A stretch of 64,000 nt of DNA from the NCBI GenBank assembly GCA_964493145.1, contig CAZBMV010000001.1, positions 54,623 through 118,622 of the forward strand. The letters run 5' to 3'. The translations under genes were made by a program, and so were the position numbers. The notes beneath the pieces are model-generated. The model saw only the letters and a program-made list of their open reading frames with translations. It was not told the DNA's origin and did no database searches. This document shows, piece after piece, positions 6,084-50,200 of the stretch. Within the stretch, counting starts at the first letter, position 1, and every line of letters begins with the position of its first letter. Origin of the DNA: an uncultured Candidatus Saccharibacteria bacterium (GTDB taxonomy: Bacteria > Patescibacteriota > Minisyncoccia > Phycocordibacterales > UBA918).

Positions 6084-6992
6084 TTATTTAATCCAAGAAG
6101 CTAACGCGTCTGCCAAATTTTGCTCAAAACCGTTATACCCGTGGTCAGCATCACCGAGAATATTCGTCTCAACCTTGGGTGAGTTGAGTAAAGCCCCCTT
6201 TATCCTATTCATTGTCTCCTCAATTGAAACTACGAGGGCATCATCTTTCCTTCCCATAATTGCATATGTTGGAATGGTTATCTTTGCGAGGAGTGGGAGT
6301 GTATCACTGGGGTTATGAAAGTTGAATATTGCGACAGGCGAATGTTCTCCGCCAAGACTAATGTACGACTTCGCCGAAAGCGGACTTTCATCCCATAATG
6401 CAGGGTTCGGCAGAAGTTCATCGCCCCTCCCTTCGGCAACCATTTGTTGTGCGGTGTTCATATCTACCTCATAATTTTTATCCAACTTTATGAGACCGAC
6501 CATATCGGAGGGTGAAAGGAAAATGACCGAGGAAAGTCTTTCGTCATTTGCCTCTGCGGAATAATATGCAACCTTCGGAGCACCGAGACTGTGTCCCGAG
6601 AGATGAATGTTTGAGAAACCTCTTGACGAGACAAAATCAATCGCTGTTCGTATATCAATCAGACTGTCTTCAAATTTCTCATATGCGTTTCCAATTCTCA
6701 CAATCGTCCGCTTTCCGTCCATAATTTTCGTTAGGTCCTTCATCAGTTCGCAACCACGATTATTGAAAGCGAGGAATGCAATATTATTGCTTGTTAGAGT
6801 TTCGGCAATAGCATCTAGGAATTTGTTTTCATAAAAATTACCCGCCATTCCGTGAACGTGCACAAGGATTTTGCCAGTTGTCTGCTCTGGTTCATACAAA
6901 AGACCAACTAGCTCTAGACCGTCTTGTGTGACCATCCTATGGAATGATGTTTTCATAATGGTGATAGAAGTATACCAAAAATTAATTCTCAC
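6084..6992 (-). CDS. alpha/beta-fold hydrolase
   Basis: 302 aa; HVHGMAGN oxyanion-region motif and GHSLGA nucleophile elbow. Confidence 0.7.
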   Translation of the reverse strand: MRINFWYTSITIMKTSFHRMVTQDGLELVGLLYEPEQTTGKILVHVHGMAGNFYENKFLDAIAETLTSNNIAFLAFNNRGCELMKDLTKIMDGKRTIVRIGNAYEKFEDSLIDIRTAIDFVSSRGFSNIHLSGHSLGAPKVAYYSAEANDERLSSVIFLSPSDMVGLIKLDKNYEVDMNTAQQMVAEGRGDELLPNPALWDESPLSAKSYISLGGEHSPVAIFNFHNPSDTLPLLAKITIPTYAIMGRKDDALVVSIEETMNRIKGALLNSPKVETNILGDADHGYNGFEQNLADALASWIK

Positions 6993-7059: not shown

Positions 7060-7073
7060 AGGGCGGCTACCGG

Positions 7074-7163
7074 GTGAGAAAGTGCGGGGCACTTTTGCAA
7101 GAGGTTGTCGACAGTTTGAGGACACGAGAACTGTCATACAACCTGAACAGTTCCTGTAAGGAA
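7074..7163. ncRNA. structured repeat element, family 2, copy 1 (candidate small RNA / 3'-UTR element)
   Basis: GTGAGAAAGTGC-GGGG-GCACTTTTGCAAGAGGTTGTCGACAG...CTGTCATACAACCTGAACAG-TTC-CTGTAAGGAA. A second copy at 61283-61379 keeps the stems through compensatory changes. Confidence 0.35.
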
Positions 7164-7289
7164 TCGGCGTCCAACTCTAGTTCACTACGTTCACAAGAGT
7201 TACCTGCCCGCGGTTCGCTGGTTCGTCGCATTATGAGAGCGACTTACATCGCGAACCGTTCGATTCCGGACGCGAGCTCCGCTCGCTTA

Positions 7290-7345
7290 GCCGCCCAGAC
7301 ATGTGAAAAGCCCCTTACGGGGCCTTCACATGTCTGGGCGGCTAC
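7290..7345. repeat. 18-bp perfect inverted repeat (GCCGCCCAGACATGTGAA...TTCACATGTCTGGGCGGC) enclosing a GCCCC/GGGGC inner hairpin; overlaps the tRNA-His 3' end
   Basis: Seen directly. Likely processing or terminator structure downstream of tRNA-His on the minus strand. Confidence 0.5.
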
Positions 7346-7437: not shown

Positions 7438-8337
7438 TCACTTGTCGAGGTGTTCCCCTTTCAAAAAGCGCGTGCTGTCTTGAAAGACACTCCCCTCCTT
7501 GAACTCGTTGTGAAATTCGGATGGCAGAAGCTGAATGTCGTCGTCCGGTAAAATCCATCGCACTTCGTCTATTTCGTGCGCGTGAGTCTTCTCTCTTTCA
7601 TCGTGCGTAAGGTAATCAGCACCGTTTGCAATCTCAAAGAAAAATTCAACTGACTGTACTCCGCCGGTATTTACAAATGTGTACACGTATAAGAGTCTGC
7701 CTACCACCGGTTTCACGCCAAGCTCTTCTACGAGTTCCCGTTCTATACACTCTTTCGGATTTTCTCCAACATCAAGATGTCCCCCCGGAAGTGCGTAAAA
7801 ATCTCGCTCCGGGTGATGGACGGCGAGAAGTTTCCCATCGTGAATGATAACCGCGCGACTGCGGACGGTGTGTGTATGCATGGACGTAAGTATACAAGAA
7901 AAACGAGTGCGGGAGCACTCGTTTGATGGACATTCGTTTGGTGACTTTGGTGGAAGATCATTGAGTAAGCTTAAAACCATTGCGCGTTTTTCGGCAAAAT
8001 CAAAATGTGGGTGTGTTTGACTGCACCAATCAATCGCTCGCACCCATGCGCACACGAGGCGCCTCCCTTCCAGGGAGAGCCCTATGTACACTCCGGGGTT
8101 CCGGTAAAACCACTCAATGAAACAGGCCGATGCGTTGCACTCAGCCCGTATTGCCGCGAGTGCATTGTATGCTCTGCAAACGTTACGAAATTCAAACGCC
8201 AAGTACACCGTAATAACGGTAAAGCACACGACTACTCCCTGTATCATGTGAACCTCCCGAGAGAACGAATACTTCATATACTGTACACAATAAAAGAGAA
8301 ACATGGAACAATCTTCCCAAATCCTCTGCCCATACAA
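7438..8337 (-). CDS. NUDIX hydrolase; the functional protein probably starts at the internal Met (7881), giving ~147 aa
   Basis: C-terminal half carries the Nudix box GGHLDVGENPKECIERELVEELG. The N-terminal 150 aa of the long ORF is low-quality sequence running toward tRNA-Leu. Confidence 0.7.
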   Translation of the reverse strand: MYGQRIWEDCSMFLFYCVQYMKYSFSREVHMIQGVVVCFTVITVYLAFEFRNVCRAYNALAAIRAECNASACFIEWFYRNPGVYIGLSLEGRRLVCAWVRAIDWCSQTHPHFDFAEKRAMVLSLLNDLPPKSPNECPSNECSRTRFSCILTSMHTHTVRSRAVIIHDGKLLAVHHPERDFYALPGGHLDVGENPKECIERELVEELGVKPVVGRLLYVYTFVNTGGVQSVEFFFEIANGADYLTHDEREKTHAHEIDEVRWILPDDDIQLLPSEFHNEFKEGSVFQDSTRFLKGEHLDK

Positions 8338-8364
8338 AAAGACCGGCAGAAAGCCGGTCTTTTT
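8336..8364. terminator. hairpin + T-run (AAAAAGACCGGC-AGAA-AGCCGGTCTTTTT)
   Basis: Seen directly, between the tRNA-Leu 3' end and the NUDIX ORF. Confidence 0.5.
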
Positions 8365-8367
8365 GTA

Positions 8368-11071: not shown

Positions 11072-11291
11072 CAAAGAAAACCCGCTCTGTGGGTTTTTGA
11101 CTGGGCGCTAAGCACAGCACCTGCGTGCTGTGCGTGAGGGCTCGAAAAGAATTTGTATATTTTTTCTATACGAAATGAAAAAATACAAATTCTCGGGTAG
11201 AAAAAAGTTATGAACGTAGTGAATTACTTTTTGACACCGAGACCTCCACCGCCCACACATACAAAAAATCGCATCGGCGGTTTTTTGTTTT

Positions 11292-11314
11292 TGTGCCTCG
11301 ACCAGGAATCGAAC
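11292..11314 (-). repeat. 23-nt duplicate of the tRNA-Arg(TCT) 3' end (TGTGCCTCGACCAGGAATCGAAC)
   Basis: Identical to 11438-11460; lies 125 bp beyond the tRNA 3' end and itself sits inside a CCAGGAATCGAA...TTCGATTCCTGG inverted repeat. Confidence 0.55.
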
Positions 11315-11439
11315 ATTACATGTTCAGTACACCTTGTCGCTATTTTGTTTCCTTACGTCACAAAATAGCTGGCAAGGTCTTCGATTCCTGGACCCAATCA
11401 CAGAAAAACCGGCATGGAGCCGGTATTTTTGTGATTGTG

Positions 11440-15660: not shown

Positions 15661-15787
15661 CAAAACTAGAAAATTCAGGGTTCTTCCCTGGATTTTTTAG
15701 TTTCTGCGCAGGAGATTCGAAGCTGTTCAGAGATATTTTGGGAGTGATAGCGAACAAAAATATCCTGAACGGGTACTGAAACTGTAA

Positions 15788-15811
15788 GTTTCGAATCTCG
15801 CCCCTTCCGCC
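15788..15811 (+). repeat. near-identical (22/24) duplicate of the tRNA-Ser 3' end, ~130 bp downstream; followed by a terminator hairpin at 15821-15850
   Basis: GTTTCGAATCTCGCCCCTTCCGCC versus the tRNA 3' end AGTTCGAATCTCGCCCCTTCCGCA. Confidence 0.55.
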
Positions 15812-16472: not shown

Positions 16473-16475
16473 CGG

Positions 16476-16517
16476 TATACGAAAAACACGTCACGTATGT
16501 GACGTGTTTTTCGTATA
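16476..16517. terminator. 19-bp perfect palindrome hairpin (TATACGAAAAACACGTCAC-GTAT-GTGACGTGTTTTTCGTATA) directly after the tRNA
   Basis: Seen directly; symmetric A/T runs allow bidirectional termination or processing. Confidence 0.5.
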
Positions 16518-16794
16518 GCACGCAAACTGCTTTGCGTGCGTACAGTGGTGCCAAGTGGAACCATGTTTCGGCTATTACTAATGCCGAAACAGGCGAGCTC
16601 GGGGTGAGAAGCGAATACTTGGAGCTTCGCAAGACCTTGAGCACGCTAGTGCGAAAGGTGTACCGCTTCTGTAAGAAGAAAGTGCTTACTATTTTGGAAA
16701 CGAAGTAGAACAAAATAGTTAGCAACTTGACCCCACCGTGCCCTCATCAGCCGCAACCAAAATCTAGCGTCTATTGCTTGCTTCAAAACTTAGT

Positions 16795-20065: not shown

Positions 20066-20542
20066 CTATTTTCTTTTCGCATCTCGCGCGTGAAAGAGAA
20101 CGATTCCCGCACACACGGAAACGTTGAGGGATTCCTTTGCACCACTCATGGGTATGTGGAGGTGTGTGGTTGCGTCGGTAAGTACTTCACTTTCCACTCC
20201 CGTAATCTCATTCCCAAAAATGAATGCGGTGTCTTCTTTCGTAACGAGCGTTGTATATGGAACGGCGTGTGTCGTTTGCTCTACGGCGACAACGTGGACA
20301 CTTTCCTTCTTCAGTCGTTCTATGAGAGAAACAATACCTTCAACCACCTCGTATGGCACTGTCTCTGTTGCACCGAGCGACGTTTTTTTTATTTCCGCAT
20401 TCTCTCGGCCGAAACGATCCCGCGGAGCGGGTGTGTACCCGGTGATGAAAATTTTGGACACGCCTGCCCCATCCGCAGTCCTGAAAATTGAGCCGACGTT
20501 GTGTGCGCTTCGTATGTTGTGGAGAATGACGTACGTGTGCAT
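20066..20542 (-). CDS. SpoU/TrmH-family RNA 2'-O-methyltransferase
   Basis: The C-terminal 158 aa carry the SPOUT motifs (HNVGSIFRTADGAG, FIFGNEITGV, LHIPMSG). The ORF-track N-terminal 179 aa is charged low-complexity sequence and overlaps the opposite-strand membrane-protein gene. Confidence 0.7.
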   Translation of the reverse strand: MHTYVILHNIRSAHNVGSIFRTADGAGVSKIFITGYTPAPRDRFGRENAEIKKTSLGATETVPYEVVEGIVSLIERLKKESVHVVAVEQTTHAVPYTTLVTKEDTAFIFGNEITGVESEVLTDATTHLHIPMSGAKESLNVSVCAGIVLFHARDAKRK

Positions 20543-20623
20543 GGCTGTGTGTCGCACATCATACACCCATTTTTCGTAGACGCTATTCCTTAACAAGGTT
20601 ACATGGACACGGTACACTGAAGT

Positions 20624-21022
20624 ATGCTCAACATTTTCCCCATTCAGTTTCTCGCTCCGTTTGCATACATGATTCTGCGCGTCGGCATCGGTTTCGTACT
20701 CTTTGTTCTCGGTGTTCGTCACCTTCGTAATCGCTTCGCCCTTCGTGACACGTTCACGTTCCGCCTCTTCCCGTACGGCTTCTTCTTCGCGTGGTATCTC
20801 GCTATTGTGGAAATGGTTATTGGCGTCATGTACCTGCTCGGCCTTTTTACCCAAATCGCCGCTCTCCTCACCATACTCATGTCGCTCAAGTTTCTCATCA
20901 TGCATCGCACTTTCTCGCATCCGCTCATTCCGTCTCGCCTCACATACTTTTTTATGCTCCTTATCTCGGTTTCGCTCCTCATCACCGGCGGTGGCGTGCT
21001 GGGTTTTGATTTGCCGATATAA
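20624..21022 (+). CDS. DoxX-like small membrane protein
   Basis: 132 aa with four TM helices; tentative family. Confidence 0.4.
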   Translation: MLNIFPIQFLAPFAYMILRVGIGFVLFVLGVRHLRNRFALRDTFTFRLFPYGFFFAWYLAIVEMVIGVMYLLGLFTQIAALLTILMSLKFLIMHRTFSHPLIPSRLTYFFMLLISVSLLITGGGVLGFDLPI

Positions 21023-21203
21023 ATAGACATCTGCGGTGCCTGTGGTATAGTTTTGGTGCGCAGGAATGCGCTTTTTCATTTTCTTTTTTGTCTTTACAAA
21101 TTAGAATATAAACATGTTTGGTATATTTCCACACATCCGCCTTACAGGCGCTGTACACCTTTAGGGTATTTTTGTTCGTAAACTCCAATAATTCCACTAA
21201 AGG

Positions 21204-21232
21204 TCCGGAAAAGTGCCCCGCACTTTTCCGCC
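21204..21232. repeat. hairpin AAAAGTGC-CCC-GCACTTTT abutting the tRNA-Lys 5' end; same stem as the first hairpin of the 7074 element, inverted
   Basis: Seen directly. Confidence 0.4.
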
Positions 21233-21237
21233 CATAG

Positions 21238-21310
21238 CTCAGCCGGTAGAGCAGCTCCCTTTTAAGGAGAAGGTCCCAGGTTCGATCCCTGGTGGGCGGA
21301 CAAAATTTTT
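21238..21310 (+). tRNA. tRNA-Lys (anticodon TTT)
   Basis: CCGCCCATAGCTCAGCCGGTAGAGCAGCTCCCTTTTAAGGAGAAGGTCCCAGGTTCGATCCCTGGTGGGCGGA; loop CTTTTAA. Confidence 0.8.
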
Positions 21311-21340
21311 AAAGAAAATTTTGGACGCACAAAAAACTGT

Positions 21341-21366
21341 CCGGGGGACAGTTTTTAAGGGATCGA
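21341..21366 (+). terminator. intrinsic terminator AAAAAACTGTCC-GGG-GGACAGTTTTT
   Basis: Seen directly, 30 nt after tRNA-Lys. Confidence 0.55.
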
Positions 21367-21430
21367 AGACCTTGCGAGATACCTTTGCGAGTGAAGCGAA
21401 GCAAAGTATCCGCAAGGTGTACTGCTCGTG

Positions 21431-21447
21431 TAACGAGAGATACCCTG
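21431..21447 (+). repeat. 17-nt direct duplicate of the tRNA-Lys 3' end (CCCTGGTGGGCGGACAA)
   Basis: Identical to 21297-21313. Confidence 0.5.
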
Positions 21448-21549
21448 GTGGGCGGACAAGCGTTAAGAAACCCTGACCTTCGTCAGGGTTTTAGCTTGTC
21501 CGAGCCGCAGCGATGTTTTGCCGACCGCAAGGAAGCAAAACCGCGAGGC

Positions 21550-22022
21550 GGGGTCGCGAGTGCTTAGATAAATATTTATGAAATTAATATTTAACTTAGC
21601 AACTCGTGACGACAAGGTTTGTTTAGTACGCAAACCACTTTGCGTACGGCGCTTGTCCGAGCCGCAGCGATGTGGCCAGAAAATAACGAGCGTAGCGAAT
21701 ATATTTTCTGAGTCTGTCTTAAAATTCTATTCAAAATGAATTTTAAGACGAAAGCTGTCAAAAAGGCAAAACCGCGAGGCGGGGTCGCGAGTGCTTATGA
21801 GCGAAGCGAATTAGGAACAGCAGTCTGGGAGACTGCTGTTCCGTGACGACAACGCCATTGGGGTCGCGAGTGCTTAACGAACGCAGTGAGTTTAGGAATA
21901 ATAATCTGGGAGATTGTTATTCCGTGACGACAAGATTTGTTTAAGCGAGCTGGGGTCGCGAGTGCTTATGAGCGAAGCGAATTAGGAACAGCAGTCTGGG
22001 AGACTGCTGTTCCGTGACGACA
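21550..22022 (+). repeat. tandem array of four homologous ~66-74-nt structured units (21550-21615, 21781-21852, 21860-21933, 21952-22022)
   Basis: Each unit is GGGGTCGCGAGTGCTTA + variable region ending in a 12-13-bp hairpin + CGTGACGACA(A). Units 2 and 4 are identical; unit 3 keeps its hairpin through compensatory changes. Upstream partial repeats GCAAAACCGCGAGGC x2 and CTTGTCCGAGCCGCAGCGATGT x2. Confidence 0.6.
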
Positions 22023-35873: not shown

Positions 35874-36965
35874 CTATTTGTTCATTGGCATGACGAGATA
35901 CCTAAGTGAATTATCATGTACTCCTTCAATAACCATTGGCCGTCCAAACCCGGCACATTTAAGGATAATGCTCTCGCTCTGTATGTGGGGGAGTGCCTCA
36001 CTAATGTACCGTTGATTGAAGTTAAGGGTTATATCCTCTCCCTCCACAGTCGCTTGGATTGATTCTGTTGTTGCGCCCGCCTCCCCGCTCTGTGCTGAGA
36101 GGGTAAATGTACCACCGGAAATTGTAATGGTGAGCTGAAGAAATTTATTGAGGAAAATGTTTGTTTTCTTTAGTGCTTGTGAAAGGTTGTTTGTGAGGAG
36201 GGTTGTGTTTGTTTTGTACTCTTTAGGAATAATTTGTGTGTAGTCTGGAAACGAGCCGGTGATGAGACGAGAGGTGATGTAGATATTATCAACAGAGAGA
36301 GCGCATTGGTTTTCTGTAATAAAAATTTGTACATCTCCCTGCACCTCTTCAACAACACGCGCGAGCTCAAGTGCGTTTTTATATGGAATTAGAATTGGTT
36401 CCTCAAGGGTAATGTTCTTTTGTGGAATTGTTTTCTCCATTAACCTAAAAGAGTCTGTTGCCACAAATGTGAGGGTATGCTCTTTTTTTTGGTGAATATA
36501 AATACTTCCTAATTCAGGCTTAATTGATGATTGGGACGCGGTAAACGCTGTTGTTTTTATTCCCAGGGCAAAAAGAGATCCTTGGATGGTGTGTGGGGTG
36601 CTCTGTATGTGTGGAATTGTTGGAAAATCCTCAATTGGAATACTTTTAATTTCTGTTCGCGACGCTTTTGATTCAACAACCAACACATCTCCTTCTTTAT
36701 AGAGGGTAACTGTTGGTTGTGTAATAAGATTTATTGTTTGTACAAGAATGTTTGCTGGAACGGCGATACTACCATCCTCTTGTTGTGTCACGTCAACATA
36801 CCCCTCAATTCCAATTTCAAGATTTGTTGCCTTAATGGTGAGTTTTGTGTTTTTTACCTCAAGGAGTACACATTGGAGTATGGGGAGAGTTATGTGTTTT
36901 GTGCATACTTTAGAAACACTCTCAAGTGTTTGTTTAAATTTTTTTATATCAAGTGAGATGTGCAT
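35874..36965 (-). CDS. dnaN: DNA polymerase III beta sliding clamp
   Basis: 363 aa; MHISLDIKKFKQTLESVSKV...LLEVKNTKLTIKATNLEIGIE is the typical domain-I start; directly downstream of dnaA. Confidence 0.8.
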   Translation of the reverse strand: MHISLDIKKFKQTLESVSKVCTKHITLPILQCVLLEVKNTKLTIKATNLEIGIEGYVDVTQQEDGSIAVPANILVQTINLITQPTVTLYKEGDVLVVESKASRTEIKSIPIEDFPTIPHIQSTPHTIQGSLFALGIKTTAFTASQSSIKPELGSIYIHQKKEHTLTFVATDSFRLMEKTIPQKNITLEEPILIPYKNALELARVVEEVQGDVQIFITENQCALSVDNIYITSRLITGSFPDYTQIIPKEYKTNTTLLTNNLSQALKKTNIFLNKFLQLTITISGGTFTLSAQSGEAGATTESIQATVEGEDITLNFNQRYISEALPHIQSESIILKCAGFGRPMVIEGVHDNSLRYLVMPMNK

Positions 36966-37244
36966 ATGTGTGTTTTTCTTTTTTTAAAACCGGACTACGT
37001 TTTACTATTATGTATGTGAATGTGTTGATAGTGCGATAAAAGTACGTAATTGTAGTATTTTTTGTAATATTTTTTTGTATAATTCTGTGTATAGGGTGGT
37101 TATTTTTTCACATAAATATATTTTCTATGTGAATATCTTTTACATTAAAAAATAACGATACTTTTTTTCATACCTATACACACAGTACGATAATACTTTT
37201 CCTATTTTATAAAGAACTTTTCAACACACTTCCCCACCACCCAT
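36966..37244. promoter_or_regulatory. AT-rich dnaA-dnaN intergenic region; candidate oriC/DUE with weak DnaA-box-like 9-mers
   Basis: About 75% A+T with many T/A runs. Degenerate TTATNCACA-like sites: TATTCACAT (complement of ATGTGAATA), ATTCACATA. Confidence 0.45.
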
Positions 37245-38624
37245 CTACTTGAGAAGTAAACGAATTTGAGAAATTTCTTCCTCTAACTCCGTACTCTCTT
37301 TCACCTCATGTTTTATTTTTTCACACGAGTGGATGACGGTGGTGTGGTCACGACCCCCCAACTTTTGCCCAATTGCCGGGTATGAAACTTGAAAATCCTC
37401 TCGGAGGATGTACATGATAAGTTGACGTGGCTTCACAACCTCCTTCCTACGCGTCTTTTCGTAAATACTTGCAGGATCAATGTCATAAAATCGTGCAATT
37501 TTATCCACCACATCAGAAACCGCAAGTGATTTGCGTGGGCGGGTACTGTTTTTTATAAGTACCTTCACCTCATCAAGCGAGAGCGCTCGTCCGAGGAGTT
37601 GTGATTGGCATAAAATGGTATTGAGTGCACCCTCCAACTCACGAACGTTTCCCTCTATGGTCTGTGAGAGGTGTTCAACCACATCCTCACCGAGGACGAG
37701 ACTATTTTGCGCCGCTTTTGATTTGAGAATGGCGCCCCGCGATTCAAAGTCAGGTTCAGGAATATCAACAATCATTCCCTGTGAAAAACGGGAACGGAGA
37801 CGTTCTTCCATATTTGACATGAGTGCCGGGTGAACATCACTTGAGAAGACAATCTGCTTGTTATTGTCATGCATGGCGTTGAAGAGGTGGAAGAGTTCTT
37901 CCTGCGTCTTCTCCTTATTCATAAGAAACTGCACATCGTCCATAATGAGAACGTCATACTGGCGGTACTTGTCCTTAAAATTATTTGCCGTTCCGTTCTG
38001 AAGTGAATTCATGTAGTCAACGGTAAAACGCTCACTTGTGACGTAGTACACCTTCTTCCCCGCCCGCTTCAATTGATTTCCGACAGCCTGAATGAGGTGT
38101 GTTTTTCCATGTCCCGTTTTCCCGTACACAAAGAGTGGGTTGTACGCAATGCCGGGTTTGTTTACGACCGTTCGTGCCGCAGCATGCGCGAGCTCGTTAA
38201 ACGGACCAACGACAAAATTATCAAACACATACTTCGGGTTAAGATTGTCACTCTTATTTATGTAGTACTCCTCAAGAGGAAGCGCGGCATTCACCGTTTG
38301 CTTTCGTGAAGATTCGTGTCGCTTGTCGTTTCGTTGCACAACAATATACTCTATGCTCCGCGCATAAGGAGTGAGGTCGCGAAGTGTTTTTAAAATCAAC
38401 GTCTGAAATTTATCCGCAACCCAGTCACGAACAAAAACACTTGGAACACCAAGCGTTACCGTCCCGTCTTCAAGTGAAACAATGTGTGTATCACGGAACC
38501 ACGTTTTAAAATTTGCGGAGGTTATGGAGAGTTCTATATTGACGAGCGCATCATCCCACAATTTCTTCACATCAATCTGTTCCGTCTGAATAATGTTGGT
38601 AGAGATGTTTGAAATAGAACTCAT
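37245..38624 (-). CDS. dnaA: chromosomal replication initiator DnaA
   Basis: AAA+ motifs GKTGHGKTHL and VLIMDDVQF; C-terminal DNA-binding domain (...IGQKLGGRDHTTVIH). Confidence 0.9.
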   Translation of the reverse strand: MSSISNISTNIIQTEQIDVKKLWDDALVNIELSITSANFKTWFRDTHIVSLEDGTVTLGVPSVFVRDWVADKFQTLILKTLRDLTPYARSIEYIVVQRNDKRHESSRKQTVNAALPLEEYYINKSDNLNPKYVFDNFVVGPFNELAHAAARTVVNKPGIAYNPLFVYGKTGHGKTHLIQAVGNQLKRAGKKVYYVTSERFTVDYMNSLQNGTANNFKDKYRQYDVLIMDDVQFLMNKEKTQEELFHLFNAMHDNNKQIVFSSDVHPALMSNMEERLRSRFSQGMIVDIPEPDFESRGAILKSKAAQNSLVLGEDVVEHLSQTIEGNVRELEGALNTILCQSQLLGRALSLDEVKVLIKNSTRPRKSLAVSDVVDKIARFYDIDPASIYEKTRRKEVVKPRQLIMYILREDFQVSYPAIGQKLGGRDHTTVIHSCEKIKHEVKESTELEEEISQIRLLLK

Positions 38625-44495: not shown

Positions 44496-46292
44496 CTATG
44501 TACTACCTCGTGCAAGTTCCGCACGCGCTTGCTGTATCTGGAGGAGTTGCGATGGGTCGGACGTGATGATTTGGTCTTCCGTGTATGACGCCATGACCTT
44601 AATCGCGACGTGCTTAAGGCCGACGAAGAAGATACCCTCCCCCACCCCTGACTCTAAAAGCATGAACTTTTCTTCATCGGTGAGGTTGAACACGCTCTGG
44701 AGTGTGTCAATCGCCGTCGGTGATTGCTTCATGAGAAGCTGAATGGATGAATTCGTGATCATCGGAACGCCGTACGGTGAGCGAAGGAAATCGTCCACGT
44801 CTTGTGTGATTGTTGAGAGGCCGAGGTAGTACTTTCGTCCGCGCTTTGCGACATTGTGGAGAAAGGCGGCCGTGTCGGGGGATTTGAGCATCCACCACGC
44901 CTCATCAATGACGAGGAGGCGCTTTTTGAGTTCACGACGAACCGCACCCCAGATGTGGTTCGTGATGATGTACATGGCGATGGTCTTCAACTCCTCCTCC
45001 ATGTCACGGAGAGAGAAGACGATGAACTTTTGATTGATGTCCACATTTGTCGGTTCGTTCATGAAGCCCGCCCACGTACCCGATGTGTACTTTGTGAGGC
45101 GTTGTACCAATGATTCGCTCCCCTCCATTCCCGCGAGTACCATTTCAAAATCCGAGAGGAGGGGTGGCGGGAGGTCGCGATAGTCACCGTTTCCCGTGAT
45201 GTCCTTGAGGGCATACACCTCGTGAAGCGCCGCATCAATGATGGCGTCTTCTTCCGGCGTGAGTCCGCCGAGCATGAGACGCATGAGCCCCACGAGTTCA
45301 ATAATGTGCGAGCGGAGAAGTTCCTTCGGATTTTCATCGGCTTGCGGTACGGGGAGATCAAACGGATTGATGTGGTGACTTGAGGAGAGCGAGATGTTGA
45401 AGAAGCGACCACCGGTTGCTTCCGCGAGGTACTCGTACTCACGTTCCGGATCAATGACGATGACTTCCGTACCGAACATGAGCGAGCGGAGAATTTCCAG
45501 CTTTGTCGTGTACGACTTTCCCGCGCCGGATGTTGCGAAGGTGACCGAGTTGTAGTTTGTGAGCTTGAAGCGATCAAAGAGCACGAGGGAACTGTTGTGA
45601 CGATTGATGCCATAGAGAATGCCGTTGTCCGAGGTGAGATCAAACGAGGTGAACGGGAAAAAACTGGAGAGTGGCGAAGAGTTGAACTTCGTGTGCACGA
45701 GGAGCATGTCGGAAACGGTGGGAATGACACTCAAGAACCCCTCTTCTTGCTGGAAAAGTGCCGGCTTAATGTAGACGAGCCGTGCATCAAGAATACCCTT
45801 TACTTCAGTTTCCATTTTGTTGAGAGTCGCCTCATTGTCGGCGTAGAGCGCAATGTAGAGGCCGACGTTAAAAAGCTTCTCTTCCGCTTGCTGAAGTTTG
45901 TCACGGAGGTCCTCAAGGTTGCGGTATGCGGCATCAAGTTGCGGGTCGCGAACCATCCCCTTCTCGGCACGCTCATTGATTTGGCTCTGAACCTCAGCGA
46001 CCTTTTTTTGGAATTTCTTAAGAGTCTCTGTCGTGTTGATAGGGTGCACAACGATAGACACATCAATTTCCCGCTCAAGGTTGAGGACAGGTTCAAGCCA
46101 CCCGTCATTGAGGTACCGCGGGTACGACACCGCAAAAAAGACACGTGAGAGGCGTCCGCTCACATTGAGACTGCGCGGATTTATACTTATTGCGGACGGA
46201 GCAACAACATCGGTGAGCGAGAGCGGAGTGTTCGCCGGCGTTGCTTCTGTAGCATCTTTCTTTTTTTGTTGTATAAAATCAAAAAGACTCAT
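44496..46292 (-). CDS. virB4: VirB4/TrbE/CagE-family type IV secretion ATPase
   Basis: Walker A FATSGAGKSYTT, Walker B LLVIDEAWWML, the GRKYY motif, and the N-terminal FFAVSYPRYLNDGWL region typical of VirB4. Confidence 0.8.
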   Translation of the reverse strand: MSLFDFIQQKKKDATEATPANTPLSLTDVVAPSAISINPRSLNVSGRLSRVFFAVSYPRYLNDGWLEPVLNLEREIDVSIVVHPINTTETLKKFQKKVAEVQSQINERAEKGMVRDPQLDAAYRNLEDLRDKLQQAEEKLFNVGLYIALYADNEATLNKMETEVKGILDARLVYIKPALFQQEEGFLSVIPTVSDMLLVHTKFNSSPLSSFFPFTSFDLTSDNGILYGINRHNSSLVLFDRFKLTNYNSVTFATSGAGKSYTTKLEILRSLMFGTEVIVIDPEREYEYLAEATGGRFFNISLSSSHHINPFDLPVPQADENPKELLRSHIIELVGLMRLMLGGLTPEEDAIIDAALHEVYALKDITGNGDYRDLPPPLLSDFEMVLAGMEGSESLVQRLTKYTSGTWAGFMNEPTNVDINQKFIVFSLRDMEEELKTIAMYIITNHIWGAVRRELKKRLLVIDEAWWMLKSPDTAAFLHNVAKRGRKYYLGLSTITQDVDDFLRSPYGVPMITNSSIQLLMKQSPTAIDTLQSVFNLTDEEKFMLLESGVGEGIFFVGLKHVAIKVMASYTEDQIITSDPSQLLQIQQARAELARGST

Positions 46293-46297
46293 AGGTG

Positions 46298-46918
46298 TTA
46301 CCGTTGCGGTGCTTGTGAAAGGTCCTCGGGATTAAAAATGTGGTAGTACAGTTCGGTGAGTTCGTCTGTTCCCAGAGGCGCGGTACGGATGCCGATGCGC
46401 GCGAGCCCCTGCTCCACGACAGACACGCGCTGTTCCAACTGCATGCGGTCTTCAAAAAATTTATCTGAGACACCTCCCCCCTTTTTTGTTTTCGGCTTAA
46501 GGAATTTCCCTATACCCTCAACCTCAAGCGACGCTGACCTATACGGCACAATGACAAAGAAATTCTTTGTCATAATTTCCACTTCGCTCGTAAAGGTGGT
46601 AATGAACTCCATGTACTCTCGCAACTGAATGCGCATGAGGTCGTTGTCTTGATGCGATTCTCTCTCTTTGAGGATTTCTAGGTACGGCCGTATATCAAGA
46701 CGTCGCGACTGAGCGTATATTTGGAGAGAAAAGTCCACCGCATTAAGAAATGCCTGAAATTGAGAGAGAATCGCCTGCTGTTCTTCGGATGCTTTGAGCG
46801 CAAAGTTTATGGAAGAGGCGAGGAGCACCATACACATTTGCCCATCTTTAAGAATGACGACATCATCGTGAATGTCTGCAATGGGAACAAATTGTTGCGT
46901 TGCGTTTTGTGTTGTCAT
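46298..46918 (-). CDS. T4SS-associated protein resembling the extreme N-terminus of Gram-positive VirB4 (possible split VirB4 N-fragment)
   Basis: VPIADIHDDVVILKDGQMCMVLLASSINFALKASEEQ resembles the DG.I.KDG...L.V..INF.L.S.EEQ start of TraE/TcpF-type VirB4. Stops 5 nt before the VirB4 start. Confidence 0.4.
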   Translation of the reverse strand: MTTQNATQQFVPIADIHDDVVILKDGQMCMVLLASSINFALKASEEQQAILSQFQAFLNAVDFSLQIYAQSRRLDIRPYLEILKERESHQDNDLMRIQLREYMEFITTFTSEVEIMTKNFFVIVPYRSASLEVEGIGKFLKPKTKKGGGVSDKFFEDRMQLEQRVSVVEQGLARIGIRTAPLGTDELTELYYHIFNPEDLSQAPQR

Positions 46919-46920
46919 AA

Positions 46921-47322
46921 TTAACGTTCGGTTTGATTGAGCTCAAGTTTTTTAGTCAGCGCCGAAATGGAATTTTGGTGAACGGAAGAAAGATCTGATG
47001 TTTGCTGGGCTTCTTCCCCGTAGCCGTTTGTCACCGTCTGTGAGGATTCGCGTTTCCAAAGGTACAGTTTATTCTTTGTCGTATACCGCGCCGCTGACTC
47101 AAGGAAGAGTGAGAACGGGCGATTGTTGACGCGGTGAAATGCGAGCGAAAAAGAGAGGGCGGCAATCGGGAGGCCAAAGAGAATCGCCAAAATAAAAGGA
47201 GCGCTCAAAAAAAGAATGACGAGGATGCCCACTCCACCGGCGAGGTACACGAACTGGCGCCACGTAAGGGGGCCAATAACCTTGTCTTCAATCTCAATGA
47301 ATTGAGGAACCTCAAAGCGCAT
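46921..47322 (-). CDS. PrgI/VirB3-like small membrane protein
   Basis: MRFEVPQFIEIEDKVIGPLTWRQFVYLAGGVGILVILFL...; hydrophobic hairpin, positioned before VirB4 as in Gram-positive T4SS. Confidence 0.45.
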   Translation of the reverse strand: MRFEVPQFIEIEDKVIGPLTWRQFVYLAGGVGILVILFLSAPFILAILFGLPIAALSFSLAFHRVNNRPFSLFLESAARYTTKNKLYLWKRESSQTVTNGYGEEAQQTSDLSSVHQNSISALTKKLELNQTER

Positions 47323-47378
47323 ATATCAGTATTGTACCTTATCCGCACGCCCGCTCCCCCACGGGCGTGCGGATAAAA

Positions 47379-47930
47379 CTACTCACCCGCCCTTTTCCCC
47401 TCCTCGTATGCTTCGTACCCTCGTACGGGAGAGGAGGCACCGGACTCGTCTTTGATAGACGCAATATCTTTTTGCATGGTGCGTGTTGGCGCAATTGCCC
47501 TAAGCACCTCTTCGCGTGTGAGCGGACGCGGGCTATTCTCGTTTGTACCACTCGCGTTCTCAATTCCTTCGGGACGGAGCTCAAGTTTTTCACGAGTGTC
47601 TTTATTTGCACTCGGTAACACAACTGTTTCAGCAGTAGCATTCAGCGAATTAAAAAAGACACCAATAGTTTTTTCAATTTCAGGTATATGCGCAGAATCA
47701 ATTCCCAAAGCAGAAAGTTCATTTTTAAAATCTTCAGGCGACTTAAAACCAAGAATTGTATCGCCAATTAAGTCAATGAAAGCAAGTCTTTTTTGCTCAT
47801 CAAAATTATTTTTTGTTACCAATACACCAATAACTTCTCCTAGCTCTAGGCTACCGTATAGATTTTTTACCGGCACACTAGCATTTCGGTATGCAAGAAG
47901 CCTTTTTTCAGAGGTGATAGTGTCGTTCAT
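47379..47930 (-). CDS. hypothetical protein of the T4SS-like cluster
   Basis: 183 aa, no motif; stop abuts the start of the upstream gene. Confidence 0.35.
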   Translation of the reverse strand: MNDTITSEKRLLAYRNASVPVKNLYGSLELGEVIGVLVTKNNFDEQKRLAFIDLIGDTILGFKSPEDFKNELSALGIDSAHIPEIEKTIGVFFNSLNATAETVVLPSANKDTREKLELRPEGIENASGTNENSPRPLTREEVLRAIAPTRTMQKDIASIKDESGASSPVRGYEAYEEGKRAGE

Positions 47931-47931
47931 A

Positions 47932-50199
47932 TTAGAATCTTGAACCTGCCGGAGTACTAAAGAAATTATTAAATGCGTTATTCCCGTGGATCATTTGAAC
48001 ATTTCGTTTAATGTTCGCTCTCGCCGTGTCGTCAATTGAATCATTATCAAGTATTTTTGTGAGTACATTTGCGTTTAGATGCTGCGCTGCTTTAACATCA
48101 GTAAGAATTTGAACAGGAAGATTTGCTCTCTCAGAATCATTACGAATTCTTCCAAACAAACGTGTTGCTGAAGCGGGGGTTGAAACACCTGCGGGCGCAA
48201 ATTCTGTAATAAGTGAAGTGTTTCGGGCATTTTTGAGAACAGATTTTTCGCTGGGGGTGAGGTTCTTCATGTCGTGGATCTGTTTTGATGTCAAGTGACC
48301 GGCATGTTGGACAAGTGTGTTGAAGTCCATTGCATCAAGATCACTTGCATCTGCTTTGCTAATATTCCCAGCATTTCCTCCTGCGCCTCCCGATACCCCA
48401 TGTTTATTTTGAACGTGAATTGAGCGAGCAGAGCGTAATTTCGCTTTCTTCTCATCGTCAAGGTCTTCAGACTTTGCTTTCATTAAGGATTCAAACTGAG
48501 AAGAAGACATATTTTCCACGAGAGCATTATATTCGGGAGTTCCCTCTTTATGTTTTTCAAGAAGTTTCAAAAGTTGTTCATTTGAAGCGTTTGTGATGGA
48601 ACGTTCCATGTCAATTCTTTGTTGGCTTCCAGTAGGTGCCGAATGACCTGCGGCAATATTGGCACCAATATTACTGACTTGGGCACTTTGTGCCCTAGCT
48701 CTCTTAATTTCTTTTGTTTCATCTTTTTTGTCCTTGAATGTTTTACTGCCACCGTAATTACTTTTCGCCGCTTTTGTTGCAACTGCGTTTATTCCAGTGG
48801 CACGCATAGCTAGGGCACCAATTTGCGCGCCTCTAGTATTGCTTTTGCGTAATGAATCCTGTTTGTCGGCGACCCACTGACCAGCACGACCAATCGTGTT
48901 GCGTCCCATCCACCCGGTAGCACCTTTACGAAGATTATCACCGGCGCCAATCATCATTCCCGCACCCTCAACCCCAAGCTTCTTTGCCACGAGTAGAGAT
49001 TGGATGAGGAAGAAAATGATGACGGAAAAGTTTAGGAACATGTAGTATGAATCCGCCTGTTCCCCATTGGTCATCGCTTTCATGAAACTTCCACCTGAAC
49101 CAATAAGGTTGAGCCCACCAATGAGTGTGAGTGAAATGAGTGTGAGAAAAAGGTAAATTGGTGCGAAAAAAGCTTGTGCAAGCAGTTTTCCCCAAAGTGA
49201 GGACGCCATGCTTGCCGTTTTTGGGAAAATAGTTGCGGCAAAAAGAATCGGTGAGGCAACCATAATGAGAATGAGAATCACAAACCGAATCACGAGCAGT
49301 ACCGCAGCAGCGAAGAACACAAATGCCGCAATGAAGAGAACTAATGCGCCGAGAACGTAGAACCAAACCATGCCAGCTTTTGTTACGTTGTTGAAAGTGT
49401 TCGGGTCAGGTGCTTTGAAAATGGTTGTAATTCCAAGACGATCAGCAACAGCAGCGGAAATGGTACCCCCCCCGTCTGTCATGGAGGTATAAATTTGGTA
49501 TGAAGTATAGTTTCCGAAATCAACAACAAATTTCACAATGAAGAGACTGAAGTTGATGAGGAGCGCACCGATGATGATGCGTGAGAGTGTTTGCTTTATA
49601 AAGTGACTATCCGGGTCAATAATGGCTCTGATGCCGAGGTAGATGAATCCGAAAATAAAAGCCAGGTTTGCAAAGTCACGAACGAGTTTCCACGCGTTAT
49701 CTATCGCCAAACCAAATGATTGTGTATTGACCATGTCGCCCATACCAAAAACAAATTTTTGGAGTGCAGCATCAAGAAGCGTCCCTCCTACCCACGTAAA
49801 CGCGGACGCCATTGTGAGAATGAGGTTACCGATGTACTGACCAACTTGTGACCAAAAACCACCGTCCTCTTTTTTCTTGTCTTTCGCTGTAGCAGCTTGG
49901 TTTTTTGCTTCCGCTTCTCTCCGCACCTCTTCTTGCCACTGTTGGTTGAGGGCGTCGTTTTCAGCCTGTCTTTCATCATAAGTCTGTGTATCGTTTTGAT
50001 CTGCGATAGCGCCAAGATCTACATTTGAGGTATCAACCCCTTGAGTATTGCCGCGCGTATAGTCAACAGCAGTAGGATCAGCGTCTTGAGCAAAACCAAC
50101 ACGCACCATTCCAAAAAAAGAAAAGAGGAAAAGAAGTGCAATCGCCAAAAGGGTTGTTCTCTCCCCGAGCGTATTTTTTTGTTGATGCAGAGAAGTCAT
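47932..50199 (-). CDS. VirB6/TrbL-like polytopic membrane protein with long hydrophilic C-terminal extension
   Basis: Signal-like N-terminus (MTSLHQQKNTLGERTTLLAIALLFLFSFFGMV), ~8 TM helices, then a ~330-aa polar tail. The ORF-track start (50400) overlaps the upstream gene by 200 nt and is trimmed. Confidence 0.45.
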   Translation of the reverse strand: MTSLHQQKNTLGERTTLLAIALLFLFSFFGMVRVGFAQDADPTAVDYTRGNTQGVDTSNVDLGAIADQNDTQTYDERQAENDALNQQWQEEVRREAEAKNQAATAKDKKKEDGGFWSQVGQYIGNLILTMASAFTWVGGTLLDAALQKFVFGMGDMVNTQSFGLAIDNAWKLVRDFANLAFIFGFIYLGIRAIIDPDSHFIKQTLSRIIIGALLINFSLFIVKFVVDFGNYTSYQIYTSMTDGGGTISAAVADRLGITTIFKAPDPNTFNNVTKAGMVWFYVLGALVLFIAAFVFFAAAVLLVIRFVILILIMVASPILFAATIFPKTASMASSLWGKLLAQAFFAPIYLFLTLISLTLIGGLNLIGSGGSFMKAMTNGEQADSYYMFLNFSVIIFFLIQSLLVAKKLGVEGAGMMIGAGDNLRKGATGWMGRNTIGRAGQWVADKQDSLRKSNTRGAQIGALAMRATGINAVATKAAKSNYGGSKTFKDKKDETKEIKRARAQSAQVSNIGANIAAGHSAPTGSQQRIDMERSITNASNEQLLKLLEKHKEGTPEYNALVENMSSSQFESLMKAKSEDLDDEKKAKLRSARSIHVQNKHGVSGGAGGNAGNISKADASDLDAMDFNTLVQHAGHLTSKQIHDMKNLTPSEKSVLKNARNTSLITEFAPAGVSTPASATRLFGRIRNDSERANLPVQILTDVKAAQHLNANVLTKILDNDSIDDTARANIKRNVQMIHGNNAFNNFFSTPAGSRF

Positions 50200-50200
50200 A

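Follow-up and report, generated by a model that had tools for sequence, protein, structure and literature searches.

Introduction

The segment from the T-loop to just past the end of a tRNA gene is the classical attB sublocation of integrases. Integrative elements that target tRNA genes carry their own T-loop-to-3′-end copy, which keeps the tRNA intact, are flanked by a direct repeat of ~14–25 bp and form tandem arrays at the regenerated site. Here we describe an array of comparable anatomy behind the tRNA-Lys gene of an uncultured Candidatus Saccharibacteria bacterium, in a stretch of 64,000 nt (GenBank assembly GCA_964493145.1, contig CAZBMV010000001.1, positions 54,623–118,622, forward strand) that is called the window throughout and whose positions are used for all coordinates. 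A first-pass annotation, made by a model from the sequence alone, had noticed there a tandem array of four structured repeats of ~70 nt. These repeats are one intact and three interrupted, altered or truncated copies of a structured non-coding element, named type A in this work. On balance, we read the locus as an array that grew by accretion, made of non-coding insertion modules with an RNA structure and with the 3′ end of tRNA-Lys as their target, and we have classed these modules with the gene-3′-end integrative elements, built around a structured RNA family that is apparently undescribed, with matches in neither Rfam nor the literature searched.

The modules differ from known tRNA-targeting elements in being only ~130–250 nt long and non-coding, with no integrase found, and in having a complementary arm, covarying hairpins and an asymmetry of G.U pairs; they also use the 3′ ends of protein genes and, at tRNA-Lys, the final 3–6 nt of the gene. 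As with the 5′ ribozyme of R2 elements and the exon- and intron-binding sites of group II introns, the host is a highly expressed RNA gene with which the element would be co-transcribed, a segment of the element pairs with host sequence just upstream and 5′-truncated copies occur, but no reverse transcriptase (RT) was found near the copies or in the scanned open reading frames (ORFs), and no hepatitis delta virus-like or group II model matched them. Integrons offer another likeness, with cassettes that are promoterless units of one orientation beside a fixed site, the newest first, and attC sites that are imperfect hairpins of ~60–70 nt with conserved boxes, a variable centre, a bulged base, strand asymmetry and a crossover at the 3′ foot. 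In contrast to integrons, the modules lack RYYYAAC/GTTRRRY boxes and intI, their ‘cassette’ is a conserved RNA-like core, their duplication spans 14–25 nt rather than GTT and their polarity follows transcription. Repetitive and other extragenic palindromes, bacterial interspersed mosaic elements and miniature inverted-repeat transposable elements (MITEs) are likewise short non-coding hairpin repeats that cluster after gene 3′ ends, but the modules have no terminal inverted repeats, are not scattered over the genome (as scanned in the 64-kb window) and carry an arm tailored to each host gene.

Within the same phylum, group I introns have been described in Patescibacteria tRNA genes, at position 35/36, whereas no group II introns were found in 95 complete Patescibacteria genomes (PMC13011429). 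These group I introns resemble the modules as small RNA elements without homing endonuclease genes, and the way in which the arm pairs, the 3′ side first and then 2 nt of the 5′ side, bears a formal likeness to their internal guide (P10, P1). Unlike them, the modules follow a complete tRNA instead of interrupting its anticodon loop, have no Rfam group I match and no terminal G, and have a core of ~100 nt. Elements like the modules are described neither in that study nor in one of a patescibacterial epibiont and its phages (PMC13059738).

Results

The four repeats are parts of a larger element

The four units lie on the same strand (+) within 21535–22022, where they had been annotated (21550–21615, 21781–21852, 21860–21933 and 21952–22022). 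Their 17-nt 5′ box, GGGGTCGCGAGTGCTTA, has four exact copies on the + strand (21550, 21781, 21860 and 21952) against a chance expectation of 0.11 in the 64 kb, and their 3′ box, CGTGACGACA, terminates all four. Units 2 and 4 are 97% identical across 78 nt. Compared to them, the 13-bp hairpin of unit 3 has four changes in one arm and three in the other and includes one G.U pair, with its pairing kept, as had been noticed. All four units are far more stable than shuffled sequence when folded (z −3.2 to −5.9), and the + strand is more stable than the − strand.

Whereas the repeats are real, the boundaries given to them were incomplete, as a ~70-nt unit is only the 3′ domain (P3/H2) of the type A element, which measures ~105–125 nt and consists of a 5′ arm, helix P2, an internal loop, a variable hairpin H1, a GGG linker and P3/H2. 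The two partial repeats that the first-pass annotation had seen between units 1 and 2, CTTGTCCGAGCCGCAGCGATGT and GCAAAACCGCGAGGC, are present and correspond to the 5′ half of type A, so that two full elements, at 21494–21617 and 21651–21855, have units 1 and 2, respectively, as their 3′ domains; units 3 and 4 are without this 5′ half. Similarly, the AT-rich hairpin of unit 1 does differ from those of units 2–4, but it is the canonical form of the family, and in units 2–4 an additional hairpin has been inserted in place of CAACT, on the 3′ strand of P3, and was found among all fetched loci in the window only. The first-pass annotation had overlooked the 5′ half of type A, the complementarity of its arm to the end of the tRNA and the like architecture behind 6–7 of the eight tRNA genes of the window.

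Element A1 (21494–21617, +) is intact and gives a full-length match of 88 bits (E 1e-18) to the covariance model described below, in addition to being recognised by alignment, consensus structure and fold. Its arm GCTTGTCCG (21494–21502) is the complement of CGGACAAGC, a sequence that belongs to the end of the tRNA and to its trailer, its core (21503–21610) comprises P2, a GCA/GA internal loop (GGA/GA in the family consensus), H1, GGG and the P3/H2 domain that corresponds to unit 1, and its 3′ flank is GACAAGG. A hairpin that we call H0, GUACGCAAAC-CAC-UUUGCGUAC, follows at 21626–21647 (+, from the fold); the same module stands directly before the arm, on its 5′ side, in several elements. Element A2 (21651–21855, +), identified by its repeats, its fold and a weak model match (21746–21831, 25 bits), shares its arm and the start of its P2 (21651–21673) with A1, but its H1 is split by a ~95-nt insertion bearing two more hairpins, beyond which GCGAGGC leads into unit 2 with the extra 13-bp hairpin at 21814–21842 in the 3′ strand of P3. 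Units 3 (21860–21933, +) and 4 (21952–22022, +) are 5′-truncated copies with extra hairpins at 21895–21923 and 21985–22013; unit 3, which consists of P3/H2 alone, was recognised by sequence comparison and fold, and unit 4 by its repeats and a weak model match at 21943–22002. Unit 3 shares its H2, ACGAACGCAGTGAGT, and the flank on its 3′ side, GACAAGATTTGT, with the one type A element of a relative, locus L058 (L-numbers designate fetched loci), whereas the sequence preceding unit 4, GACAAGATTTGTTTAAGCGAGCT, is a deletion derivative of the A1–A2 junction.

CRISPR arrays have direct repeats of ~23–50 nt with unique spacers of similar length, and type III toxin–antitoxin loci have tandem RNA repeats of ~34–40 nt directly upstream of an endoribonuclease toxin gene. 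Repeats in the same orientation before an ORF of unassigned function might suggest a degenerate CRISPR, an iteron set or a type III antitoxin array, but the units are ~70 nt long with variable interiors, the gaps between them are of 7, 18 and 165 nt, the last being made of parts of the element itself, and elsewhere the repeat stands as a single copy behind tRNAs. Neither cas, rep nor toxN-like genes were found and the 30 scanned ORFs of the window contain no Cas domain, so the earlier rejection of CRISPR was correct. The proposal of an iteron-like role is not supported, as the hairpins show compensatory changes and strand asymmetry, are tied to the strand of the tRNA and lie ~15 kb from dnaA/dnaN with no rep gene. 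A ToxIN-like system is a misfit in unit size and spacing, and the 246-aa ORF downstream has no Pfam match and is absent at other element loci. We regard this whole group of explanations as having practically no likelihood. An integron array was discarded because the boxes read GGGGTCGCGAGTGCTTA ... TTAGCAACTYGTGAC with no GTTRRRY at the 3′ boundary, and the array abuts a tRNA gene with no intI found. A MITE was discarded also, as no inverted repeats are formed by the ends (trailer ... GTGAC), the gene end defines a duplication of 3–25 nt and copies occur only in the 3′ flanks of genes.

Type A cores share a covarying and strand-specific structure

Candidate loci of type A were collected by an exact scan for a 16-mer in one genome per species (36 loci) and by a search for the two-box pattern in metagenomes (20 more). 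A consensus structure was obtained with RNAalifold from a MAFFT alignment of 34 full cores, revealing 28 pairs, 15 of them with compensatory changes. The canonical form, as in unit 1, is ...AG-NCGGAG-[hairpin H1]-GAGNYG-GGGGUCGCGAGUGCUUA-[hairpin H2]-UUAGCAACUYGUGAC. P2 has 3 bp, of which the middle one is CG in 13 cores, GC in 9, AU in 7 and UA in 4; the internal loop has GGA on its 5′ side and GA on its 3′ side, with the A and the GA invariant, and the closing pairs of H1 covary. In P3, which has 9 bp, one G.U pair is invariant and another is frequent; a bulged A, GCU/AGC and a U.U mismatch follow, and H2 is a variable stem with the cap GA[RC-RNA-GY]GAA.

A covariance-model search across related genomes had been proposed as a check on the repeats. 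The model built from the 34-core alignment detected more than 50 copies in the fetched Patescibacteria loci, many of them without the 16-mer, and with strong covariation. In 55 model-aligned copies, 94.9% of the cells were paired, compared to 76% in shuffled sequences and 30–42% with slid partners, and 21 of the 28 pairs showed double-sided changes. P3/H2 was more stable on the tRNA strand in all 38 unique units, by 7.3 kcal/mol on average. Judged from sequence, type A thus shows both the compensatory changes and the strand specificity of a structured non-coding RNA. The idea of a multi-copy small RNA, one of the roles suggested by the first-pass annotation, is in agreement with these strand-specific, strongly covarying domains, but a functional unit would be larger than ~70 nt.

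A small ORF across P3/H2 (GTG ... TGA in L009) was dismissed because it lacks a conserved start and the lengths of H2 are not divisible by three, and hammerhead, hairpin ribozyme and K-turn were dismissed for the junction, on inspection, because their consensus order and loop sizes do not fit. On the minus strand, the closing strand of H1 can pair with the start of P3 in an alternative hairpin, CCGCGAGGCGGGGUCGCGA (21772–21790 and 21541–21559), present in Lys-type copies only, which scores as a terminator with a T-run.

A filled and an empty site at tRNA-Lys

The host gene and insertion target, tRNA-Lys(UUU), lies at 21228–21301 (+; ARAGORN, and 67 bits with the Rfam tRNA model). A 17-nt duplicate of its 3′ end had been noticed, and indeed the sequence CCCTGGTGGGCGGACAA, which runs from the 3′ strand of the T-stem to the tRNA end and comprises the final 15 nt of the tRNA and, after them, 2 nt of its trailer, is found as a direct repeat at 21287–21303 and 21443–21459 (+). 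The proximal copy is the one now used by the tRNA, whereas the distal one is the displaced original 3′ end and runs into the native trailer. The latter (21460–21493, +) contains a terminator-like hairpin (inverted repeat with arms at 21468–21477 and 21482–21491, also seen in the fold) just before A1, and the sequence after the distal repeat, GCGTTAAGAAA, matches the tRNA-Lys trailers of relatives, ACGTTAAGAAAAAC and ACGTAAAGAAAAAC.

Between both repeats lies an insertion of a second type, type B (21304–21442, +), recognised by its inverted repeats and by homologues elsewhere. It consists of a new trailer, a terminator-like hairpin (21332–21356), an arm AGGGAUCGAA (mapped as AGGGATCGAA at 21358–21367, complementary to the T-loop/T-stem at 21281–21290) and a long hairpin closed by CCUUGC/GCAAGG in the tRNA-Lys copy, the apical part of which, GAGUGAAGCGAA, is a loop of the same kind as that of H2; in the 3′ part, a junction UGUACUG is followed by a small hairpin with a UGUAA loop. 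Homologues of type B with compensatory changes were found after tRNA-Ser and tRNA-Arg(tct) of the window and after tRNA-Lys in L070, and a longer relative in L051. Types A and B share apical loop motifs, so there are at least two related types.

Locus L058 was obtained through its TrmH homologue and thus was not selected for the motif. It contains an identical tRNA-Lys followed by trailer, hairpin, arm and one type A element, with a single copy of CCCTGGTGGGCGGACAA and no type B. Compared to it, the window has 156 nt extra (type B plus one copy of CCCTGGTGGGCGGACAA) and then resumes with the relatives’ trailer GCGTTAAGAAA. As the two loci align, therefore, the window and L058 are a filled and an empty site with a 17-bp duplication. 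Type B is also present at tRNA-Lys in L070, and absent in L023, L005 and L062 as in L058. In L051, type B is flanked by two type A copies that are 97% identical and have a hairpin and an arm each. The arm of this type B still matches the tRNA from 250 nt away, which points to type A having been inserted later, between the tRNA and type B, at ...GGGCG|GAC.

Flanking repeats of the tRNA 3′ end with restoration of the tRNA, as in integrative elements, were also found for tRNA-Ser and tRNA-Arg(tct) (21–23 nt) and at five other loci (21–25 nt), in addition to the 17 nt of tRNA-Lys. The tail copies do not look like complementary DNA of a mature tRNA, which was considered and discarded, since they have no CCA where the gene has none. 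A further indication of the origin of the gene ends comes from rplL, the gene for a ribosomal protein, in L028: between its two 3′-end copies there are 8 differences in 54 positions, every one of them synonymous. Therefore, both copies evolved as coding sequence, in different lineages, and the module brought its gene end from another lineage, which argues against a simple target-site duplication, unlike in R2 and group II elements. L028 has two serial insertions into rplL at different points, ~25 nt and ~57 nt before the stop codon.

The order of the copies in the window, counted from the tRNA, is intact type B, intact A1 (88 bits), interrupted A2 (25 bits), truncated unit 3 and truncated unit 4. 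As unit 3 shares H2 and the 3′ flank GACAAGATTTGT with the single copy of L058, it is apparently the ancestral resident and the oldest copy. Unequal recombination has also shaped the array, as deduced from the junction of unit 4, derived from that of A1–A2, and its near-identity to unit 2. Among the roles considered by the first-pass annotation, ‘remnants of serial insertions of a hairpin element’ came closest, in view of the empty site in a relative, the nested and truncated copies and the duplicated target.

Modules lie behind tRNA and ribosomal protein genes of Patescibacteria

About 22 of the 36 loci from the 16-mer scan belong to Patescibacteria (Saccharibacteria, Kaiser-, Campbell- and Paceibacteria and other Parcubacteria); as the loci were mostly found through the motif itself, such prevalence figures are biased upward and give less support to our reading than they seem to. 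In total, more than 50 element sites were found across ~40 independent contigs of several Patescibacteria classes. These data refute neutral tandem duplication or assembly noise, that is, local hairpin copies without wider meaning, as does the covariation; despite the near-identity of units 2 and 4 and the paralogous junctions A1–A2 and unit 3–unit 4, that explanation is very improbable.

Nearly all copies are located 45–90 nt downstream of a tRNA gene and on its strand, the hosts being tRNA-Lys, Gly, Trp, Thr, His, Pro, Glu, Ile, Leu, Ser, Asp, Cys, Met and Arg; in a four-gene tRNA cluster of L034, one to four copies stand behind each tRNA. A few hosts are protein genes, namely rplL (L028 and L057), rplB (L007) and another protein gene (L002). 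At the rplL and rplB ends, type A is located at ~1500–1900 of L028 (minus strand), 4250–4420 of L057 and 4400–4600 of L007, with arms complementary to the last codons. The layout is constant: the gene 3′ end, a terminator-like hairpin whose stem often extends as a perfect palindrome of 20–25 bp, the arm, the core and a direct copy of the gene end right after GUGAC. The arm is the reverse complement of the last 10–25 nt of the gene and starts at T54, in the T-loop, in the case of tRNAs. The tail copies of tRNAs run from position 55/56 of the T-loop to 1–3 nt past the tRNA end and are near-exact (at most one mismatch) over 21–25 nt in L008, L027, L036, L055 and L056, and partly degenerate in others.

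The tail copies were assayed within 420 nt of 60 non-redundant Patescibacteria tRNAs, with the upstream regions as a control. A direct copy of at least 10 nt was found downstream of 23 of the 60 and upstream of 2 of 55, and an inverted copy of at least 9 nt downstream of 29 of the 60 vs. upstream of 1 of 55.

In the window, no fewer than six tRNA genes out of eight show the pattern, namely those for His, Val, Arg(tct), Ser, Arg(gcg) and Lys. Behind tRNA-Ser, Arg(tct), His and Val, too, there is a terminator hairpin and then an arm that complements the T-loop/T-stem of the tRNA concerned. The modules of tRNA-Ser (15662–15810, +) and tRNA-Arg(tct) (11292–11438, −) have type B cores and exact tail copies of 21 and 23 nt, respectively. 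Those of tRNA-His (7061–7335, −) and tRNA-Val (11073–11260, +) have structured cores, with an exact tail copy of 14 nt in the first and a degenerate one in the second. Behind tRNA-Leu there is a possible module (8300–8367, −), consisting of a terminator hairpin and an inverted arm against its own T-loop/T-stem, with no recognisable core or tail copy. Only tRNA-Gly(ccc) is clearly without a module of its own, the space downstream being taken by the element of the opposite-strand tRNA-Arg(gcg). The latter is a type A locus (16540–16735, +; recognised by sequence, fold and a model match at 16680–16728 of 36.7 bits) with an arm CAGTGGTGCC complementary to the tRNA end, P2/H1 and a canonical H2, in which a type-B-like piece is nested and interrupts the 5′ strand of P3. 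After it, CCACCGTGCCCTCATCAG is an inverted, not a direct, copy of the tRNA-Arg 3′ end, and this region (16473–16792), with the convergent tRNA-Gly(ccc), looks rearranged. Away from tRNA flanks, the 64 kb gave no further model matches (E < 0.01).

The H0 module, GCAAAC-NNN-UUUGC with flanking pairs, was found in the window at 21626–21647 and 16517–16538 and in L019, L044, L007 and L031; in L070 and L051 it sits within the arm, with the acceptor-strand part on one side and the T-arm part on the other. Another hairpin, whose loop is of the CUGGGAG type, also occurs in varied positions, inside P3 (units 2–4 of the window), inside H1 (L028 and L056) or in the flank (L010). As both recur at different positions of different copies, the family is modular.

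The arm is selected to pair with the upstream gene end

The pairing of the arm with the upstream gene end was compared to that with the downstream copy. The mean duplex energy was −27 kcal/mol (z −5.2) for the former and −14 kcal/mol (z −2.1) for the latter, which was at chance level in the Lys-type copies. When transition-type mismatches were counted in sequence-only alignments, the arm had 12 G.U-compatible mismatches and one A.C mismatch against the upstream gene end, vs. five and five against the downstream copy. In addition, trailer and arm change together at orthologous tRNA-Lys loci (GGACAAC/GTTGTCC, GGACAGC/GCTGTCC and GGACAAGC/GCTTGTCC). The 12:1 excess of G.U and these paired changes imply selection on a single-stranded molecule with the polarity of the gene, in which the arm pairs with the 3′ end of its host gene. 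Therefore, the pairing of the arm with the upstream gene end is under selection, whereas the downstream copy is a passive leftover that decays. A closing helix P1, formed by the arm and the downstream tail, was rejected as a functional pairing, as it is weak in Lys-type copies and has no G.U bias.

The polarity of the modules in the window follows the strand of their tRNA (three on −, four on +), all of them being on one side of dnaA/dnaN, and this would point to a transcript rather than to single-stranded DNA linked to replication. A promoter inside H2 was considered and found to be unsupported.

Several observations weigh against the insertion reading. No promoter-like site was found before the cores and a terminator-like hairpin stands between gene and core, so that, with the polarity of the host gene, transcription would be possible only by read-through. 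Part of the array (A1–A2 vs. units 3–4) resembles a block duplication and not independent insertions. Type A follows tRNA-Lys(UUU) in every relative captured (window, L005, L018, L023, L058, L062 and L070), both staying joined also at loci in which the orientation of the pair, with respect to the genes around it, is reversed, and the cores at different tRNAs of one genome are diverged, not recent copies of each other. Finally, no integrase, transposase, RT or Cas gene was found near the copies (8-kb loci, more than 50 copies), and the 30 ORFs of the window that were scanned with Pfam contain no recombinase, transposase, RT or Cas either.

These data would also fit the main rival to insertion, a host-serving cis-acting RNA of tRNA and ribosomal protein units, inherited vertically, with repeats and arrays produced by local duplication and gene conversion instead of mobility. 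Arm and core would then form the 3′-end structure of read-through transcripts, with a role in processing, control of decay or insulation of termination. In favour of it, the constant association of type A with tRNA-Lys(UUU) suggests a cis element beneficial to the host, the compensatory trailer/arm changes and the G.U bias represent selection at the RNA level on pairing with the host RNA, and the cores at different tRNAs are old and keep their structure despite divergence. In contrast, it does not account well for the presence or absence of type B at an identical tRNA with a clean 17-bp duplication, the nested and 5′-truncated copies, the synonymous-only differences between rplL ends or a downstream tail copy that decays without selection on pairing. 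Moreover, only some tRNAs carry modules, the same tRNA can bear different types and the exact 16-mer is common to Saccharibacteria and Parcubacteria-type lineages. The constant association at tRNA-Lys can also be explained by turnover, since the proximal copy is always the youngest. A host-serving element is thus possible, but not the explanation that we would expect to hold.

No mobility genes or known RNAs were found with the modules

When ORFs around 41 loci were clustered, only syntenic housekeeping genes were found, and no larger autonomous element with shared ends was detected. A search of 20 loci with Rfam 15 at gathering scores returned only tRNA and tmRNA, and a permissive one (E up to 5–10) of the window region and six further loci gave nothing overlapping the elements; families such as group I and II introns, small ribozymes, HEARO and the IS605-orfB RNAs had no scores near their gathering thresholds. 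Phage and plasmid collections gave no match. In IMG/VR the type A pattern was absent, the 16-mer had one chance match and the type B pattern had 95 matches, none with type B features. Locus L017 is a GC-rich, apparently circular plasmid-like contig of 6396 nt, binned with Alphaproteobacteria, with the 16-mer at 83–98 and 6332–6347 and CCGAGGCCGGGTCGCGAGTGCTTA in its terminal overlap. As a candidate autonomous element it was rejected, because it scored only 13–19 bits with the covariance model and its 16-mer is probably a chance match.

These searches bear on a third explanation, in which the modules would be miniature integrative elements mobilised by a tyrosine integrase in trans, a circle of the size of an attP integrating into a T-loop-to-3′-end attB with the repeats as attL and attR. 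The block of identity, from the T-loop (positions 53–61) to a few nt beyond the tRNA end, is the one expected, and so are the replacement 3′ end, the tandem accretion at a regenerated site and an insert of 130–250 bp, near a minimal attP; the synonymous-only differences in rplL fit an element-borne gene end as well. On the other hand, no integrase lies near the more than 50 copies, no larger element with these ends was found and phage, plasmid and IMG/VR matches are missing. Furthermore, the sequence to the left of the distal repeat is unlike the T-stem 5′ half-site that the core site needs, type A at tRNA-Lys shares only 3–6 nt with its target, and covariation, G.U strand asymmetry and a target-complementary arm are unexpected for protein-binding attP arms. 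We consider this explanation rather improbable.

Surroundings of the array

The window is an ordinary stretch of Saccharibacteria-like chromosome, with ruvA, a murE-like gene, trmH, polA, holA, pilB, ruvB, dnaA/dnaN and type IV secretion-like genes. The TrmH/SpoU ORF (20066–21079, −) has 337 aa as listed, compared to 153–199 aa (mostly 153–166) in homologues, and its E/K-rich N-terminal ~180 aa are probably either untranslated or a lineage-specific extension. In relatives, a DoxX gene is located between trmH and tRNA-Lys, whereas the window has the unrelated 246-aa ORF instead. The genes dnaN/dnaA lie at 35874–38624 and the minimum of the cumulative GC skew at ~30 kb, so that the replication origin should be near. 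A VirB4/TraG-like ATPase and a TrbL/VirB6-like protein are encoded at 44496–50400.

Discussion

The mechanism that we propose takes as its starting point what is observed, namely the anatomy of the modules, their covariation and strand specificity, the selection on pairing between arm and upstream gene end, the duplication of the target, one pair of filled and empty sites and the association with gene 3′ ends in Patescibacteria. A complete module would bring its own copy of the host-gene end, which leaves the gene intact, together with a terminator-like hairpin, a complementary 5′ arm and a structured RNA core. Its insertion would displace the original 3′ end of the host downstream as a direct repeat, which would then decay. 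New modules would enter beside the gene, so that older ones would shift distally and become interrupted or truncated, and unequal recombination would reshuffle the copies. In read-through RNA, the arm would pair with the 3′ end of the host RNA itself. The insertion step may be a recombination between the gene end borne by the module and the chromosomal gene, with enzymes supplied in trans, candidates being a site-specific recombinase or the homologous recombination of the host after DNA uptake. The RNA structure, in turn, may serve the spread of the module or its harmless residence. The helix of arm and gene end may be of use to the module, for recognising its target or for its processing out of the host transcript, or to the host, for dealing with read-through transcripts.

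A bolder reading, which we think unlikely, is that of protein-less, RNA-guided mobile elements, ‘self-complementing intron-like’ modules that would constitute a categorically new class. According to it, the 5′ arm would be a guide that chooses the 3′ end of a highly expressed gene, and insertion would take place at the edge of the guide–target duplex, that is, at T-loop position 55/56 or where the complementarity of the arm stops. As the module would carry a copy of the displaced ‘3′ exon’, it would not need to be spliced out. The three-helix junction (arm helix, P2/H1 and P3/H2) would be a small ribozyme or a handle for a host enzyme of strand transfer, and the modules would spread among Patescibacteria through DNA uptake.

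Patescibacteria have tiny genomes with little non-coding DNA, yet most tRNA genes of the window carry 130–600 nt of conserved and structured non-coding modules. If these are mobile, they would be the smallest gene-end-specific insertion elements known to us, with a guide-like arm for each target, and the choice of site and the entry of a protein-less element would become directly testable. If, instead, they serve the host, they would represent an undescribed, phylum-wide layer of the biology of tRNA and ribosomal protein transcripts. In either case, they constitute a well-supported new RNA structure, with a covariance model and more than 50 members, that can be used as an annotation marker for Patescibacteria genomes and that explains duplicates of tRNA 3′ ends which could be mistaken for the att sites of prophages.

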